In this document: one piece after another, positions 19,235-29,267 of the stretch
Layout of the letters: every line of letters begins with the position of its first letter
Numbering within the stretch: position 1 is the first letter of the stretch
Source of the DNA: an uncultured Bacilli bacterium
GTDB taxonomy: Bacteria > Bacillota_I > Bacilli_A > RF39 > UBA660
NCBI GenBank assembly: GCA_944331805.1
Contig: CALVIS010000001.1
Span: forward strand, 1-59,400
Reading direction: 5' to 3'
Length of the DNA: 59,400 bases
Notes under the pieces: model-generated
Database searches by the model: none
The model's input: the letters and a program-made list of their open reading frames with translations, nothing else
Told to the model about the DNA's origin: nothing
Translations under genes and position numbers: made by a program

Positions 19235-20323
19235 TTAATCTCTATTATTATTATCTGGGATACATATATACTTGTTATGAATTTTTACAACTAATACTTT
19301 ATCCATTATAGAAATATTTTTTGAACTAAATTGCTTAAATGTAACATCTAAATGAACATTATATAAGGGAAAATATATTGTAACTATATTATATCTAGTA
19401 CTTGGTGAAGTACTAATATTACTTATATAGCCGTTATTAATAGAATTTATCTTATTGGATTTTAATTTTATAACAGATAATAAATTAATAAATAGAGCTA
19501 TAATAATCAATATATTAATAATTAAATAAATAGCAAGTGGTAATAATATATTTGTGTTATTGCTAGAAAGATAACTTTTAAATAAACCTAGCGGTTTAAA
19601 AAAGGAAAATAAAAATAACATAACTATAATTTGGAGAATTAATGATTTTATATAATAATTGGTTATTATCTTTTTGTTCTCTTCCGATATTTCATTATAT
19701 TTAAAATTTTTTTTAGATAGTTTATTACTTTTTAAAGCACGATTTTTTAAATTTTCTAATTGATTTAACTGATTAAATTTAAACTTTCCTTTTTTAAAAT
19801 CAAATATTTTAAATACTAAATTGTTTCTATTTTCAAAATAATCACAATAAGATTGTAAATCATTTTTATCAGTATAATTTGATATAACGTTTATTAATTG
19901 ATAAAACTCTTCATTATTTATGCTATTAGATGATAAATTATCTAAAATACTATATATTTTTTGTTTTACATTATAAATATTAATTATGTTATCCAAATTA
20001 TTATTTATAAGTATTTTTTTTATTTCAATATAAGCATTAATATATTCATTTTTAATAGTGTTATCTTTTAGACATTCTATAATACTAAAATTACAATATA
20101 AACTTTTTAATTGTTCATTGGATAAATAAATTTTTTCAATATCATAAACAGAATTAGTTTTTAAAAGCAAGCCTTTTATATTATAAATAGTATTACTAAT
20201 GTTTTCAGTTTTAGAAAGATGATAGATAAGATAAAAAACGTCTTGCATATGATAATTATTTGTATCTAGTTTTAAAATTAAATATAGCTCTAGGGCTTCT
20301 TTTGAAAAGATGTCATTATACAT
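19235..20323 (-). CDS. hypothetical membrane-anchored protein
   Basis: 362 aa. Asn/Ile-rich helical N-half, two hydrophobic helices at roughly aa 230-290, and a small C-terminal beta-like domain. Lies 10 nt downstream of the HTH gene. Confidence 0.5.
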   Translation of the reverse strand: MYNDIFSKEALELYLILKLDTNNYHMQDVFYLIYHLSKTENISNTIYNIKGLLLKTNSVYDIEKIYLSNEQLKSLYCNFSIIECLKDNTIKNEYINAYIEIKKILINNNLDNIINIYNVKQKIYSILDNLSSNSINNEEFYQLINVISNYTDKNDLQSYCDYFENRNNLVFKIFDFKKGKFKFNQLNQLENLKNRALKSNKLSKKNFKYNEISEENKKIITNYYIKSLILQIIVMLFLFSFFKPLGLFKSYLSSNNTNILLPLAIYLIINILIIIALFINLLSVIKLKSNKINSINNGYISNISTSPSTRYNIVTIYFPLYNVHLDVTFKQFSSKNISIMDKVLVVKIHNKYICIPDNNNRD

Positions 20324-21261: not shown

Positions 21262-22371
21262 TTAAAGTAAATACCAGAGTTTTTTATCATCTTTTCTAAC
21301 TTCTTTAACAATTCCACCACCTAAACAGTATTCTCCATCATAAAAAACACATGCTTGTCCAGGAGTTACCGCTTTAACATTATTATATCTAACGATTATT
21401 TCTCCATTATCTAGATATTCTAGTTTAACAGGAACATCAGGCGCTCTATATCTAAATTTAGCAGTGCACTCTAAAGGCCTTTCATCGCAGTTAAAGTTAA
21501 TAGTCTCTAAAATAGCACTATCTGAATATAAATATTCATTATCCTCCCCTTCTGCCACATATAAAACATTCTTATTTAAATCTTTTCCAACAACAAATAA
21601 CTTATCTTTAGTACCACCAACATCAAGTCCCTTTCTCTGCCCTATTGTATAGTACATAAGACCAATATGTTCTCCTAATACTTCATTAGTATCAATATTA
21701 ACAATATTACCTTTTTTGTTTGGTAAATAATTCTTAAGAAAGTTTTTAAAGTTTCTCTCACCTATAAAACAAATACCAGTAGAGTCTTTCTTTTTAGCAG
21801 TAACTAAATCATATTTTAAAGCAATCTCACGTACTTCCTTTTTATCTTTAATATCTCCTAGTGGAAATAAAACATTTTGTAATTGTTCTTTAGATACTTG
21901 TGATAGAAAATAAGTCTGATCTTTATTATGTTCATGACTTCTCATAAGTCTACCGTTTTCAATTTTAGCATAATGTCCTGTAGCAATATAGTCAGCACCT
22001 AACTTTTTCGCTTCCCTAACAAATAAATCAAACTTAATATATTTATTACACATAATATCAGGGTTAGGTGTTCTCCCCTTCTTTAATTCATCTAAAAAGT
22101 AAGTAAAGACGTCATCCCAATACTCTTTAATAAAATCTACTCTATGTAAAGGTATTCCTAACTTATCACATACCGCTTTAGCATCATTATAATCTTCTTC
22201 TTGTGGACATATATTATTACCTAAATTAGGATTACCTAAGAAGTCATTATTAATAGAACTATCCCAATTACGCATAAATAAACCAATAACATCATAGCCT
22301 TGTTCTTTTAAAAGAATAGCAGCGACAGATGAATCTACTCCACCACTTATTCCAACTACAACTTTCTTCAT
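21262..22371 (-). CDS. mnmA: tRNA 2-thiouridine(34) synthase
   Basis: PP-loop [10 protein letters not shown]. Full-length similarity pattern (CNKYIKF, GHYA, DQTYFL, C-terminal barrel). The ATG at 22371 follows the RBS GAGGTGG. Confidence 0.94.
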
Positions 22372-22469
22372 AGATACCACCTCTAACTCGTACTAATTAT
22401 ACTATATATACCCTTTACTTTCAAGGAAAATATGTTATAATATGTAGTGCAACTTTAAGGGGTGGTTTA

Positions 22470-24242
22470 ATGAATAAAAGCTTTAAAAAGATAATTAATT
22501 TAGAAGAAAATATCTCTATAGATGATTTAAAAGCAGCTTTAGAATACTTTATAACTATCAAAGATAATGATTTAAAAGAAGAATTTCTATTAAAATGTAA
22601 AAAAGTTATTATATCTTTTCTTAATAAATTATTACCTATGGTAGATGAGTATCCTATTTCTATATCATATGACAAAACAGTTTTTAAAATAGATAGGCTT
22701 CTATATTGGGCTAATTTTTTATATGGTAATAAAATTTTTCCTATATTTACTAAAGATATACAAAATATAAATGATAACTCTCTTTATTTAGCCTCTTTAG
22801 ATAGATACCGTAATAATGTCAATATAGATTTATTTGATGATAAAGAATTACTGTTAGATTTAGATATGTATAGTAAATCAATTGAATTAGAATCTAAATA
22901 TAGTGATATTAATAAAGATGTATTAGAGGAAGCTTATTACTTATATTTTAGTCTTAATAATTTTTTAGATAAAAAAGATTATGAAGAAAGAAAAAGAAAA
23001 TTTATGGATAAAAATAATATTTATCCAGGTACATTAAAAGATTATGTTGAAACATATGGAATGCTATATTTAAATATTCCCTTAAAAAAGATAGATAAGA
23101 TGATAAACTTTGTTGAAAGTGCTACTAGTCATTTTTCTAATGATTTCTTTAAATTTGAAGAAGTTTTAAACAATATCATAAATAGTAATGATATTAACTA
23201 TATAAAAGAAATTGTATTTACTAATCATCTTTCTCCATATGTAATAAAAAGTTTTATTGAAAAATATAGATTTTATAATAGAAAGTATTCTAATAATTTA
23301 GATAATATAATAAAGAAAATAAACGCTTCTATAATATCATTAGAAAAAGAACATAAATATATTCATTATTCTATCGCTTTAACTAAAATAGAAAGTAGTA
23401 ATGATTTAGAAGAAATTAAAATTATAGTAAAAAACAATATAACATATTTAACAAAAGATAATGTGGAGAGATTTATTACAATTTATAGAGTTACTTTATC
23501 TGATAAAAAGAAACAAGAATTAGAAGAAGAATTACTCAAAAAAACTGAAATAGCAAAAGAGGACATAAAAAAAGACAATGCTGCTGATAGAGCATTAGGA
23601 ATAGAAAGAAGAAAAGAAAATTTATATAATAGTATTGATTTCAATATATTTTTAAGCTCTGATATTAAGAGTAAGGATGATTTTTGTAAACTAATGGATA
23701 TCAGAGAAAGTGATTTTAATACTTTATTTTCAATGTTAGAAGTTAGAGATAATGAACTATACTTAAAAATTAAAGGAAAAATAAGAAATCTACAAGGCCA
23801 AAGATATGCAGTATTAATTAACAAAGTAAATTCTATTGCCGATAACATTATTAATGGAATAGAACTAGAAGATGGTAGTAGAAGAAATTTTGAAATACTT
23901 GATTATTTTCTTAGTACTAAATTAGACTTTAATGAATTTATAGACTTATATAATAAAAGCAGAAATATAGATATAGAATCACTAAAAGCAATTAAGATCT
24001 TCTTTGCTAAAAATAAACTAACTAATAAACTAAATATCAATCAAGAACTTGATGGAAGAACTATATTTATGGTAGATGATAAACCATATGAAGTAAGTAA
24101 AGAGGAAAAACAAACAGTTCTTAACTATCTAGGAGTTAAAGATATACCTCTTTATACAAAAGTATATAAACAAGCTTTAAAAAGACATATAAATGGTAAT
24201 TTAATATTAGAAGATGATAAAAAACTAATTAAGAAAGGATAA
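22470..24242 (+). CDS. large helical Lys/Asn-rich protein, family copy 1
   Basis: 590 aa. Paralogue of 24248..26047 along its whole length. HTH-like stretch FCKLMDIRESDFNTLFSML. Conserved tail IPLYTKVYKQALKRHINGNLILEDDKKLIKKG. Confidence 0.6.
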   Translation: MNKSFKKIINLEENISIDDLKAALEYFITIKDNDLKEEFLLKCKKVIISFLNKLLPMVDEYPISISYDKTVFKIDRLLYWANFLYGNKIFPIFTKDIQNINDNSLYLASLDRYRNNVNIDLFDDKELLLDLDMYSKSIELESKYSDINKDVLEEAYYLYFSLNNFLDKKDYEERKRKFMDKNNIYPGTLKDYVETYGMLYLNIPLKKIDKMINFVESATSHFSNDFFKFEEVLNNIINSNDINYIKEIVFTNHLSPYVIKSFIEKYRFYNRKYSNNLDNIIKKINASIISLEKEHKYIHYSIALTKIESSNDLEEIKIIVKNNITYLTKDNVERFITIYRVTLSDKKKQELEEELLKKTEIAKEDIKKDNAADRALGIERRKENLYNSIDFNIFLSSDIKSKDDFCKLMDIRESDFNTLFSMLEVRDNELYLKIKGKIRNLQGQRYAVLINKVNSIADNIINGIELEDGSRRNFEILDYFLSTKLDFNEFIDLYNKSRNIDIESLKAIKIFFAKNKLTNKLNINQELDGRTIFMVDDKPYEVSKEEKQTVLNYLGVKDIPLYTKVYKQALKRHINGNLILEDDKKLIKKG

Positions 24243-24247
24243 TGCTT

Positions 24248-26047
24248 ATGAATAAAGATAGTTTCGATAAAATTATCAATAATGATAAAGAAGATATAAG
24301 TAGTAAAGATTTTACTAAAGCAATAGAATATTTTTTATCTGTTAAAGATAATAATAGTAAAAAACAGTTTTTAAATAATTTTAAGCCATTAATTAATTAT
24401 TATTTTACAAAAAGTTCTTTAGTTTTTGAAATTGATCATGATGTTTATACTATAAATAATAATATTGCTTATAAAATAGGACAGCTTTCTTTTTACATGT
24501 ATTCTTTATATGGAAAAACTAACCTTGAAAAAATAAAAAAAGAAGAAAATATTGATTATTATAAAGGGTATAAAACTTTTTTCGATAAGTATTACTTTAT
24601 ATCTAAACTCTTTCAAAATGAGGTTCCTTTAATTAAAAGACTAAAAACATATCGAAAAGAAAAAGATATATCAGAAAAATATCAGGATTTTAATATAGAT
24701 ATATTAAAAGAAGCATATTACACAGCCTTTACCATCGATAATTATTCTGATAAAGATAATTATTATAAGAGAATTGATTCATTCCTAGAAAAATATAATA
24801 TTAATATTGATACATTTAAAGAATATATTAGAGCATATGGCTTGCTATATCTAAACACAGACTTAAAACATATAGATAATAAAATTTTATCAATTGTTTT
24901 AGCACTTAAAAAGATTAATATTACTGGTTCAAAAGAGGTATTAGCTAAAGTACTTGAAAAAAACAAAGACTCTAATGATAATGAAAACTTTGAAAATATT
25001 GTATTTTCTAAACACATATCTTTAGATGTGCTTGATTATTTATATGAAAATAAGTACTTTGATACTGATACTTATAAGAATTTATATGTTAAAGTTAGTA
25101 AAGCTATTGAAAGTCTTAGTGAAAAATATAAATATATTCACTACTCTATCGTTATGAGTAAACTAGAAAAAGAAGAAGATCTTAATATAATAGATAACAT
25201 AGTAGAAAATAATAATAATTTGATACATCCTGAGTATATTAGAAAGTTTCTTAATAATTATAGACAAACTCTAACAGAAGAAGAAAAAGAAAATTTAAAA
25301 GAACAAATAACTACTAAAATAGATGAGGCAAGAAAAAGAATTAACTATAAAAAAATGATAAAGAGAAGACAAAGTGATGTAGAAAATACTAAAGAAATAT
25401 TAAAGAATATTGATTTTACCCTATTTCTTGATAATAGTATTCGAAGCATTAAACAATTTTGCCAACTAGTAGGTATCACGGAGAGAACATATTATAAATG
25501 CATAAAAATTCTTGAAGAAGTTAATAATCCATTATATTTACAAATAAAAGAAAAAATAGAAAAACATAATAAGAAAAATAAAGAAATTAACAAATCGACT
25601 GAAAATATAATATCTATTGTTAAGCAAATAGAATGTGGAGTTATAGATAAAGATTGTAATATAAGACCGTTTGAATTATTAGATTATTTTCTTAATACTA
25701 AATTAAATTATAGTGAGTTTTTTGATATTTACATAAATAGTAATGATTGTAGTAAATCTTCTTTAACTGCTTTTAAAAATTTTATGGTTAACAATAAAAT
25801 ATCATATGTAATAGCCGATAATAAAATGGATAAAATAACTGTTGATCAAGAGCTTAATGGTACTACTATATTAATGATAGATAATGAGCCTTATGAAGTA
25901 ACAAGAGAAGAAAAAGAAGAAGTTATTAACTTCCTTCAAGAAAAAGAGATACCTCTTTATATAAAAGTATATAAACAAGCCCTAAGAAGACATATAAGTG
26001 GTAAATTAATATTGGAAGATGATAAAAAAATGATTAAGAAAGGATGA
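24248..26047 (+). CDS. large helical Lys/Asn-rich protein, family copy 2
   Basis: The ATG at 24248 aligns MNKDSFDKIIN with MNKSFKKIIN of copy 1, and the RBS AAAGGA lies in the upstream gene's end. HTH-like FCQLVGITERTYYKCIKIL. Same C-terminal tail. Confidence 0.6.
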   Translation: MNKDSFDKIINNDKEDISSKDFTKAIEYFLSVKDNNSKKQFLNNFKPLINYYFTKSSLVFEIDHDVYTINNNIAYKIGQLSFYMYSLYGKTNLEKIKKEENIDYYKGYKTFFDKYYFISKLFQNEVPLIKRLKTYRKEKDISEKYQDFNIDILKEAYYTAFTIDNYSDKDNYYKRIDSFLEKYNINIDTFKEYIRAYGLLYLNTDLKHIDNKILSIVLALKKINITGSKEVLAKVLEKNKDSNDNENFENIVFSKHISLDVLDYLYENKYFDTDTYKNLYVKVSKAIESLSEKYKYIHYSIVMSKLEKEEDLNIIDNIVENNNNLIHPEYIRKFLNNYRQTLTEEEKENLKEQITTKIDEARKRINYKKMIKRRQSDVENTKEILKNIDFTLFLDNSIRSIKQFCQLVGITERTYYKCIKILEEVNNPLYLQIKEKIEKHNKKNKEINKSTENIISIVKQIECGVIDKDCNIRPFELLDYFLNTKLNYSEFFDIYINSNDCSKSSLTAFKNFMVNNKISYVIADNKMDKITVDQELNGTTILMIDNEPYEVTREEKEEVINFLQEKEIPLYIKVYKQALRRHISGKLILEDDKKMIKKG

Positions 26048-26049
26048 AA

Positions 26050-27402
26050 ATGAAAAAAATACTTAATGATAATATTATAAAACTTGGTAACAATGTACTA
26101 TTATATTTCATAGCAAATACGATTTTAAAAATATTAAAGATGAATCTTTTTATCGCTAACTTTACTATACCAGTTCTTACTATTAAATATATTGGAGAAA
26201 TTTGTGTTAATAGATACAATAATAAGAAAAAGTTAAATCTAAGTAAAAAGAAATTAAAAGGAAAAGTAAACAGATTGAATATTGAGGGAATTTCTATTAA
26301 TGTCAACGACTTATTAGAAAATGAAATAACAAAAGAAAATCCTAATATTAAAGAGTTAAAAATAGAAAAGTCACAATCTAATCCTTACTTTAATTTTCTT
26401 AAAATACTTACTATATATATTCTTTTAAACTGTTTTAATTCTATAACTACCTCTTGTAACATTTTATTTAATGCTTCAACCACTGAAAAAGTTTTAGATT
26501 ACTTTGATGGAAAAGATAGTCTTAACAAAGAAGAACTAAATAATATTTTACATGACCTTGAAACTGAAACGATTAAAGTAACTAATGATAATAAGTTTAA
26601 ACTTGATAGTGTTGATACTAAAGAAGAAATTGATAATTATTTATTACTCAATGCTATCAATGATAATCCTTATGCTAATAAGAAAGAAAAAGAAGTAATG
26701 TATAACTTTTTAGATTTCTTTAATGATAACCCCTATTTAGATAAAGAAAAAACTTATCTTAATTTAGTTTATCTTGATTTTGACCGTAACTATAATCCCT
26801 TCTCTTCTGGAAAAGATAATAATAATGGCACTGTTACCTTAGCAGATTATGATTATGATGATATTACTTATTATACTAATCCTACTGAAGAAATAATTGC
26901 TCATGAAGTTACTCATGCTATTTTTGATACTATAACAATTCCTTCCGCTTATGTAGAAGGCTTTGCAAAAATAACAGAAAGTGAATATTTTACTAAAGAA
27001 GACGATAGTAATAATTCCTACAATAAGAACACTGCTGTTACTAAAGCTACTATAGAACTTATTGGCAAAGATAAATTTTTAAAGGCAATGAGTAATGATG
27101 ATATAAATATAATTAAAAATGCTTTATTAGATTTAAATGTTAATACTTGGTCTAATGATATTGAGGCAGAAAAAGAGATAGATAGTTTCCTAAATACTTT
27201 ATATAAAGGACTCAATGATAATGAAACTTATAGTGATATTGCAGATACTCTTATTAGTCTTGGTAGTGATTCTTTTACTGATATAGATAGATTTGGAAGA
27301 TTATGTACTTGTACTAATATTTTAAAAGTTGAAGACTATAATGTTTATCTTCCCTATTACTATTTTAATGAAGAAAAAGATAAGACTTTAACTCTTAATT
27401 AA
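26050..27402 (+). CDS. HExxH/EGFA zinc-metallopeptidase-like protein
   Basis: IIAHEVTHAIFDTITIPSAYVEGFAKI is HExxH followed 14 residues later by an EGFA-type Glu (gluzincin-like). Weakly hydrophobic N-terminal segments. Start overlaps or abuts the upstream stop. Confidence 0.5.
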   Translation: MKKILNDNIIKLGNNVLLYFIANTILKILKMNLFIANFTIPVLTIKYIGEICVNRYNNKKKLNLSKKKLKGKVNRLNIEGISINVNDLLENEITKENPNIKELKIEKSQSNPYFNFLKILTIYILLNCFNSITTSCNILFNASTTEKVLDYFDGKDSLNKEELNNILHDLETETIKVTNDNKFKLDSVDTKEEIDNYLLLNAINDNPYANKKEKEVMYNFLDFFNDNPYLDKEKTYLNLVYLDFDRNYNPFSSGKDNNNGTVTLADYDYDDITYYTNPTEEIIAHEVTHAIFDTITIPSAYVEGFAKITESEYFTKEDDSNNSYNKNTAVTKATIELIGKDKFLKAMSNDDINIIKNALLDLNVNTWSNDIEAEKEIDSFLNTLYKGLNDNETYSDIADTLISLGSDSFTDIDRFGRLCTCTNILKVEDYNVYLPYYYFNEEKDKTLTLN

Positions 27403-28028
27403 ACAACTAATTTAATTAAAGCCGGAGATAAGAATACTTCTATAAAACTACAACCTATAAATATTAATAAAACTGTTACATATACTTGTAGATATCTCTT
27501 CATAGAACTTCTTAGATTAATATCTACACCTCTAAATAAATATTTAAATAATTTAATACCAAAATAAAGGGCATAGAAGCCTAAAAATAAGCTCATTAAT
27601 AAAGTAATCAATTGATGAGGAAAAAGATAAGTAATGGCCTTTAAAATACCATTAAAATGATATGTATAAATGATAGATGATAAAGAAAAACCAAAGATAA
27701 AAGCAGATGATGCTAAACTAAAGATAATTAAAGGTATTCCTATAATAGATATACCTAATAAAAAGATAAATGTTACAAAAGAAATATTGCCAATTAAACT
27801 ATTAATTAAAGCACTCTTATAATCTATATCATTATTTTTTATACTAGTAAAGAAACTATCTAGACTTGTAGTTACTAAATTATGATCACTCTTATTTAAT
27901 ACAACAGCATATATAATACCAAGTATTAAACTTATAGTCATTACTATTATTAAAAAGATATATATTTTCTTTTGTTCTGCTAATTTGTTAGTTACTTTAT
28001 TCTTTACTTTTTTAAGTTTTAAATCCAT
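27399..28028 (-). CDS. spoIIM: stage II sporulation protein M-like membrane protein
   Basis: About 209 aa with 5 hydrophobic helices in a SpoIIM-like layout. The ATG at 28028 follows the RBS AGGTGA. Assigned by size and topology, with other sporulation genes in the window. Confidence 0.5.
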   Translation of the reverse strand: MDLKLKKVKNKVTNKLAEQKKIYIFLIIVMTISLILGIIYAVVLNKSDHNLVTTSLDSFFTSIKNNDIDYKSALINSLIGNISFVTFIFLLGISIIGIPLIIFSLASSAFIFGFSLSSIIYTYHFNGILKAITYLFPHQLITLLMSLFLGFYALYFGIKLFKYLFRGVDINLRSSMKRYLQVYVTVLLIFIGCSFIEVFLSPALIKLVV

Positions 28029-28130
28029 TATAATCACCTAGTAAATATTATTCAAAAAAGACTATTATTTACCTAAATTCATTTTACAAAAATAGACTTT
28101 TTATATATAATTAAAAATGAGGTGAAACAG

Positions 28131-28247: not shown

Positions 28248-29267
28248 CTATTTCTTTTTAAATTCAACAACTTTTCCATCAGTAATGTCATAATCACTAT
28301 TATCATTAAATACTACATCTTCCCTAAACAGTTCATTAATTAGTTTATCTATATCAGAAGTATATTTTTCTTTTAAGTATTCACTATCTTTTAAATCAAA
28401 TTCTTCTAAAACTTCTTCAAGTCCAAATACATTTTCTAAATGATACTTACGAATTATTTTATCTAAAACAGCATAGATATCAAAATAGAATTTTCCCCTA
28501 TATTCTTCTGCAAATTTATCAACTACTTGATAAACTATCGCTACTCGTTGCTGATTAACTCTATTAATATAATTATCCCAATTATTCTTAACTAAATCTA
28601 AGTCTTTATCTAAATTATCTAAAAGATATAAATGACCCTCTAAATATTCTTTTAAATAAAAATCTAAATTACCAATATAATCTAATAAATACTTAATATT
28701 CCCTATTTTAATCAATTTTTCTTTATCTTTAATATTTTTATGAACCATTTCTTCAAAATTCTTATCTTGATAAAATATTTCATATAAAAAACATATAGCA
28801 TAGTAATCAAGTATTAAAGGCTTGTCTTCATACTTAGATAAAACTACTTCAAAACCAAGACCTATTAATTCTTCAAGTTCTTTATCACTATTTTGAACTG
28901 CTCCTACTTCTACTCTATCTTCAGCATAAAAACCAGTTCTATATATTTTATAGTTATTAAAGACATCTTTATCTATAGAAGCCATTAAAACGATAATCTC
29001 TTTATATTCTAAACTATCTCTATCTAAACTATCTAATAAGTAATCAGCATCTTCCTGATAGACATCTAAGTTATCTTTAAAGTTAAGTAACATATATTTA
29101 ATAACATCATAACTTCTTCTATAAGATATATCTAAATAACTATAATATGATATATCATGAGATAATTTTAAAGCATCAAAAAGAAAGTTATTATCACTTT
29201 CTAATTCTTCTAAATTATCTATATCATTACCAAGAATATAATTATATATTAATCTTTTTGAATACAT
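28248..29267 (-). CDS. hypothetical acidic protein
   Basis: 339 aa, Asp/Glu/Tyr-rich, with no recognised motif. RBS TAGGAG. Confidence 0.5.
   Translation of the reverse strand: MYSKRLIYNYILGNDIDNLEELESDNNFLFDALKLSHDISYYSYLDISYRRSYDVIKYMLLNFKDNLDVYQEDADYLLDSLDRDSLEYKEIIVLMASIDKDVFNNYKIYRTGFYAEDRVEVGAVQNSDKELEELIGLGFEVVLSKYEDKPLILDYYAICFLYEIFYQDKNFEEMVHKNIKDKEKLIKIGNIKYLLDYIGNLDFYLKEYLEGHLYLLDNLDKDLDLVKNNWDNYINRVNQQRVAIVYQVVDKFAEEYRGKFYFDIYAVLDKIIRKYHLENVFGLEEVLEEFDLKDSEYLKEKYTSDIDKLINELFREDVVFNDNSDYDITDGKVVEFKKK

Follow-up and report, generated by a model that had tools for sequence, protein, structure and literature searches.

Background

Gluzincins carry an E-x-x-A motif on the helix that follows the active-site helix (PMC6414381). 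In M1 domains and in M1-like proteins of 400-500 aa (PF01433), the HExxH helix is followed by a glutamate helix with the motif (N/D)EG(F/L)(A/T), and a conserved tyrosine lies further downstream. Flagellinolysin is an HExxH domain inserted in clostridial flagellins. Among DNA-binding elements, the helix-turn-helix (HTH) segments of serine invertases, resolvases and small terminases are represented by HTH_28 and HTH_7. The RRNPP, BlaR1/BlaI and ImmA/ImmR systems place a helical-repeat DNA-binding protein beside a zinc protease. Here we describe three adjacent genes, A, B and C, on a 59,400-nucleotide stretch of DNA (hereafter the window) from an uncultured Bacilli bacterium (GenBank assembly GCA_944331805.1, contig CALVIS010000001.1, positions 1 to 59,400). 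The three proteins resemble these systems in part, and none of them belongs to a described family; as a preliminary description of the locus had supposed, searches of Pfam, NCBIfam and PADLOC, and of PDB sequences with three profiles, gave no match for any of them.

The favoured explanation, to which we give a probability of roughly 55%, is that the locus is a permissive insertion hotspot with separable accessory genes, whose products would be a surface gluzincin and, in one to three copies, a helical protein with DNA-binding-like features. The locus defines two protein families outside current libraries, both from an abundant, uncultured group of Bacilli of animal and human guts whose genomes measure ~1 Mb. 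The C family displays an unusually short HExxH-x13-EGxA...Y active site in what is predicted to be a compact membrane-anchored gluzincin, and A and B represent a large helical superfamily that shares a C-terminal module of ~200 aa, probably DNA-binding. Both families are candidates for new Pfam or MEROPS entries.

Gene arrangement

The window has a GC content of ~25%, and its source, a metagenome-assembled genome (MAG) of 1.37 Mb, is 69% complete. Positions 22470-27402 are filled by three open reading frames (ORFs) on the + strand: gene A (22470-24242; 590 aa), gene B (24248-26047; 599 aa) and gene C (26050-27402; 450 aa). The GC content of this cassette, 0.21-0.23, is below that of its flanks. 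The stop codon of A is followed after 5 nt by the ATG of B, and that of B after 2 nt by the ATG of C. Alternative ATG codons at 24242 for B and at 26044 for C would give overlaps of 1 nt (A/B) and 4 nt (B/C). A ribosome-binding site (RBS), AAAGGA, lies within the codons of the ...IKKG C-terminus (KKG-stop) that the two proteins A and B have in common, 8 nt upstream of the next ATG in A and 5 nt upstream of it in B. Both the spacing of 5 nt or less and the embedding of the downstream RBS had been reported in the preliminary description, whose checked details on the three genes all proved accurate. Judging from gene spacing only, A, B and C would form a tightly coupled transcription unit wherever all three are present.

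A consensus scan placed a promoter-like site for the cassette at 22414..22441 (+ strand; TTTACT-16-TATAAT with the TG of an extended -10), and the strong RBS AAGGGGTGG lies between this site and the ATG of A at 22470. The site overlaps a divergent promoter-like site directed toward mnmA (22396..22424, - strand; TTGAAA-17-TATAAT, 11/12); both are pattern matches alone, and such sites are no more numerous in the region than in shuffles. The three genes are probably transcribed together from a sigma-A-type promoter that belongs to the cassette. At its 3' end, C overlaps the stop of the convergent spoIIM by 4 nt. Rfam gave no match in the window.

Insertion between spoIIM and mnmA

The cassette is flanked by mnmA (21262-22380) and spoIIM (27399-28037). 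In two distant congeners (G048 and G002), mnmA directly follows spoIIM on the same strand with 39-58 nt between them, and A-B-C is therefore an opposite-strand insertion that splits spoIIM from mnmA. The adjacent pair in distant congeners is seen at L091:7946-9748 and L092:11128-12899. The accessory insertion is lineage-restricted, and the genus in which a single subclade carries it consists of uncultured gut Bacilli and resembles Candidatus Onthousia. Near relatives of the cassette come from MAGs labelled uncultured Bacilli or Tenericutes and from Candidatus Onthousia excrementipullorum; the bacterial family of the host comprises several hundred genera with genomes of ~1 Mb. No terminal repeats, recombinase, transposase or mobile-element ends were found around the cassette.

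Slot contents were read on contiguous DNA at the mnmA/spoIIM junction of congeners. The slot holds A, B and C in the window, in three congeners (G006, G014 and G019) and in one metagenome contig; A and C in G022; A and B in G061 and G067; A, B' and B in G024; A only in G053, G058 and G004; a B-like gene only in G068; and C only in G016, G021, G020 and G052. Among 53 species of the genus, full-length C is present in 15 (six of them without A/B) and A/B in ~19 (ten of them without C), both being found together in nine. Genomes with C only still have an intact HExxH..EG motif. With every partial combination present in this one slot, the components do not behave as those of an obligate multi-gene system, which would co-occur and be lost together.

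In a phylogeny of mnmA and spoIIM, the two flanking genes, the slot states are interleaved, which implies repeated losses. The simplest history that this pattern suggests is a single gain, after which any member could be lost, repeatedly and independently. Decay in some species is evident from two A/B-type genes that carry in-frame stops, one TGA and one TAG each (G013:C37:903-2219 and G015:C49:1936-3252).

Because their dN/dS ratios range from 0.15 to 0.50 (A, 0.15-0.50; B, 0.23-0.26; C, 0.32-0.45), A, B and C are real genes, and they are under relaxed purifying selection compared with mnmA (0.02-0.07). Whole-gene dN/dS stays below 1 for all three, with no sign of diversifying selection. The dS values of the cassette genes are discordant with those of the flanks in both directions, which suggests that cassette alleles have been exchanged between species. 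Gene conversion was considered and rejected for the 3' ends of A and B, the last 216 nt of which are 81% identical. This region is the most conserved of the whole family and its third-position identity is no higher than elsewhere; constraint explains the similarity equally well.

The spoIIM-mnmA junction is a recurrent point of rearrangement or insertion, with an aminoacyl-tRNA synthetase gene at this position in G047 and a Peptidase_S51 gene in G046.

Protein C

Protein C is predicted to begin with hydrophobic helices, which a Lys-rich loop separates from a third such helix; a zincin domain of ~260 aa follows. The putative zinc site, HEVTH-x13-EGFA (26902..26967, + strand; HEVTHAIFDTITIPSAYVEGFA), comprises H285, E286, H289 and E303, with E303 standing 14 residues past the second histidine and the invariant Tyr324 a further 21 residues on. 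The preliminary description had read this motif as gluzincin-type but more compact, and it is conserved. Among close homologues, H, E and H are present in 21 of 22, E303 is nearly invariant (at least 90%) and G304 is invariant. In an alignment that adds other genera, H, E, H, E and G are invariant, and HExxH is kept by 14 of 14 diverse relatives. The pattern HExxH-x12..22-EG(F/L/M)(A/T)E..EY plus a downstream tyrosine is invariant over five genera and a 310-aa paralogue in the same genome.

The AlphaFold2 (AF2) model of C has a predicted local distance difference test score (pLDDT) of 77 overall and ~90 in the domain. Strands are followed in this model by the active-site helix (280-292) and the glutamate helix (299-314), and E303-G-F-A306 places a Glu ligand on the downstream helix in an ExxA-type motif. 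Beta-strands ahead of the active-site helix, an E-x-x-A/T glutamate helix and a conserved downstream tyrosine are all shared with M1. An hhalign comparison of C with M1-like proteins of the same class gave a probability of 71% (E = 3.7e-5) over 68 columns that span HExxH, EGxT and the conserved tyrosine. The distance from the second histidine to the glutamate is 14 residues in C and 19-20 in M1, however, and that to the tyrosine is 35 residues in C and ~80 in M1. Unlike M1, C has no QWW/QWF after the second histidine, is predicted to be membrane-anchored and contains a conserved subdomain of its own (NYLLLNA...EKE...NPYLD). We therefore do not regard C as a member of family M1, because HEVTH is preceded by ...TLADYDYDDITYYTNPTEEIIA, which contains no GxMEN exopeptidase motif, and the spacing is x13 rather than x18; PF01433 was also unmatched in the copy of the window's own genome (G000). 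Peptidase_MA_2 (PF13485) was rejected as well, with no match in G000 or in hmmscan searches with C or its relatives, and only three matches, all sub-threshold, in the whole class.

Searches of Pfam, NCBIfam, PADLOC, PHROGs and PDB sequences with C and its relatives gave nothing over threshold. The sole curated model with any signal for C is flagellinolysin (NF033876), which matches residues 262-311, over the strand and HExxH region, at E = 0.0028 in one of 14 members; the score is 17 bits against a cut-off of 205 bits, and C lacks the flagellin scaffold.

Every member of the C family has a hydrophobic anchor or a signal peptide N-terminal to the peptidase domain, and the charge distribution around the anchor would place that domain outside the cell. 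C of the window (450 aa) and that of G006 lack ~76 aa of the predicted cytoplasmic loop through an in-frame deletion, compared with ~526 aa in most orthologues (compared with L014:8777-10357). Homologues of C were found in the same bacterial family only. The secreted 310-aa paralogue of the C domain is the last gene, with an 8-nt overlap, of an operon for GT4, Alg14-like, Alg13-like (Glyco_tran_28_C) and SGNH/GDSL hydrolase proteins (G000 contig 7, L020:1806-5886), and a 414-aa relative follows a glucosaminidase-like gene. Both contexts suggest a link with the cell envelope.

The best reading of C is a putative membrane-anchored, extracytoplasmic compact gluzincin of an undescribed family. In such an enzyme, H285, H289 and E303 would be the zinc ligands and E286 the catalytic base, and Y324 may help to stabilise the transition state. 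Its most likely role would be that of an endopeptidase whose protein substrates are external or belong to the envelope. If C does cleave host or envelope proteins, it could bear on the gut interaction of reduced-genome commensals.

Proteins A and B

A and B align from end to end with 38% identity (E = 1e-102), so that the full-length paralogy proposed for them earlier stands. A is predicted to be an all-helical cytoplasmic protein, and neither A nor B has a hydrophobic segment. With the C domain predicted to lie behind an anchor, A/B and C would therefore reside in different compartments. The AF2 model of B (pLDDT 88) consists of helical repeats (~1-340), a long helix, an HTH-like pair, two beta-hairpins and terminal helices.

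An HTH-like segment had been proposed for each protein. This is plausible, and in B it was located at residues 398-425 (IRSIKQFCQLVGITERTYYKCIKILEEV; 25439..25522, + strand), where the AF2 model has helices at 401-408 and 412-425. The sequence signal there is weak (HTH_28, E = 0.035; 14.6 bits, where the cut-off is 25). Recurrent weak hits to this segment come from the HTHs of serine invertases, resolvases and small terminases, among them a DNA-invertase PHROG (PHROG 125, E = 0.0012) and a weak small-terminase HTH PHROG (4102). Unlike serine invertases and resolvases, B has no recombinase catalytic domain, and its HTH-like segment is set in a module of ~200 aa with invariant motifs of its own (F..LDY, EK, Y..A..R) and no counterpart in Pfam or the PDB.

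This C-terminal module is the core of the superfamily. It occupies 23637..24239 (+ strand) in A and 25415..26044 (+ strand) in B, where it includes the motifs RxFELLDYFL and PYEVTxEEK...IPLYxKVYKQALRRH, and a module-only search gave E = 5.7e-68. An exhaustive profile search of 1.84 billion representatives recovered 539 clusters at 50% identity with E <=1e-3, or 293 with E <=1e-10. Members are 135-812 aa long, and nearly all match via their C-terminal 200-300 residues, many further N-terminally too. No Pfam domain was present in any of 31 superfamily members scanned, 21 module sequences gave no consistent Pfam hit, and PDB sequences gave no match. The superfamily is undescribed and was seen here only in small-genome gut Bacilli. 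Full-length A/B types are found in the genus alone. Of 150 genera in the family, 28 have the module, mostly in one copy per genome.

Elsewhere, A/B relatives are single genes among housekeeping genes (ileS, lspA/rluD, lon, gatB) with no peptidase neighbour. One relative of 530-550 aa always stands in the order Sua5, module protein, 519-aa large serine recombinase and Bro-N protein, at the same site in at least six species. The recombinase is highly conserved and consists of Resolvase, Recombinase, Zn_ribbon_recom and DUF4368 domains (L030:4038-7398 in G057; L031:3865-7195 in G067; L108-L111). This arrangement may be a domesticated or sporulation-type excision element. Given the serine-recombinase association and the weak invertase and terminase HTH hits, DNA binding is our best guess for A/B, most likely through the conserved module and its HTH-like element. 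A and B would then be cytoplasmic helical-repeat proteins whose C-terminal module acts as a regulator or as a nucleoid- or recombinase-associated factor.

On a contig of other uncultured Bacilli (L057:7179-11094), a 754-aa module protein precedes a 607-aa protein that matches nothing in Pfam, followed by an ATPase of the DUF87 (HerA/FtsK-like) type and a member of the ThiF family.

Probably separable genes and rival explanations

Independent retention of the genes, their different predicted compartments, the lack of a defence-model match and the lack of peptidase linkage among A/B relatives argue against an obligate three-part machine and leave separable accessory genes in a hotspot as the favoured explanation. 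Several observations weigh against it. The tight translational coupling of A, B and C could reflect a functional link, as could the persistence of all three genes together on at least four distinct branches of the flank tree. For A/B, the HTH assignment falls short of every curated threshold, and Foldseek with full-length B against the PDB returned generic alpha-solenoids only, with TM-scores of ~0.1. For C, one homologue (P0072) has a degenerate NQVAY instead of HExxH, and the hydropathy of the window's own copy is borderline (maximum 1.56). Foldseek with the full-length C model gave no PDB hit at E < 0.9, the best peptidase being IRAP (M1) at rank 8 with a probability of 0.18, and the search against BFVD was no better, with nothing significant; the gluzincin assignment therefore rests on motifs and one moderate hhalign score. 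With genes that come and go independently, as they do here, tight operon packing by itself is a poor predictor of a functional "system".

The alternative that survives best, an unlikely one in our view, is integrated signalling, in which surface protease C would mature or sense an extracellular cue and A/B would respond as receptors or regulators built of repeats and an HTH, by a logic like that of RRNPP, BlaR1/BlaI or ImmA/ImmR. The translational coupling and the recurrence of the trio on the flank tree both speak for it, and a divergent relative from a metagenome has the trio too, with a C of only 39% identity. A/B do combine helical repeats with an HTH-like element, and in C the hydrophobic helices are separated by a Lys-rich loop that varies in length and is predicted to be cytoplasmic. 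Each partial combination is nevertheless found with intact genes, and A/B relatives of other genera lack a neighbouring peptidase gene. As the protease domain is predicted to be extracellular, it is unlikely to cleave the cytoplasmic A/B directly. An RRNPP-like propeptide gene was considered and rejected: A, B and C occupy the whole cassette, which leaves no room for a small ORF, and no pro-peptide ORF fits. In RRNPP regulators the order of domains is the reverse of the repeats-then-HTH order of A/B. The likeness to the three systems is a resemblance in gene content; there is no sequence or profile match to them, the protease is predicted to lie outside the cell and the genes occur independently.

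A broader proposal, that the A/B superfamily is a new class of DNA-binding regulators or recombinase-associated proteins that is coupled in the Onthousia clade to a new compact surface gluzincin as a decay-prone, protease-linked signalling or conflict module, is in our judgement slightly more doubtful still.

The preliminary description had likened the three genes to a sensor/effector conflict module. An anti-phage or conflict system of this kind, with A/B as sensors or scaffolds and C as the protease effector of a fast-evolving cassette in a variable hotspot, would fit an accessory insertion of low GC in a variable slot, genes that evolve fast relative to their flanks and the allele exchange between species that the discordant dS suggests; some distant relatives also lie near the defence-like genes DUF2357, DUF87/HerA and ToxN. 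The slot states speak against it, however, as components stand alone in many genomes and the C-only 'effector' retains its catalytic motif. No family of PADLOC-DB 2.0 matched A, B, C or any of three relatives, with hits accepted at E up to 0.1, and no defence match came from PHROGs. An extracytoplasmic protease, in a compartment apart from that predicted for A/B, would be an odd effector of abortive infection. The cassette has neither mobility genes nor terminal repeats beside it, and whole-gene diversifying selection was not seen. We consequently hold the conflict-module reading to be improbable.

A role in sporulation or envelope remodelling, with C as a forespore or mother-cell surface protease and A/B as stage-specific regulators, is equally improbable. 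In its favour, spoIIM and spoIVB are nearby, a short C paralogue lies within an envelope glycan operon and one module-family member adjoins lon and a SpoVID-N/LysM protein. Against it, the cassette runs on the opposite strand behind a promoter-like site that is sigma-A-like rather than sporulation-type, it is absent from congeners that have sporulation genes and an intact spoIIM-mnmA junction, and the other contexts of the family are unrelated to sporulation.

Variation around the cassette

The entire neighbourhood of the cassette is variable. A 339-aa gene that adjoins spoIIM (28248-29267) and a 362-aa membrane gene that follows an HTH regulator (19235-20323) both vary in presence among close species.

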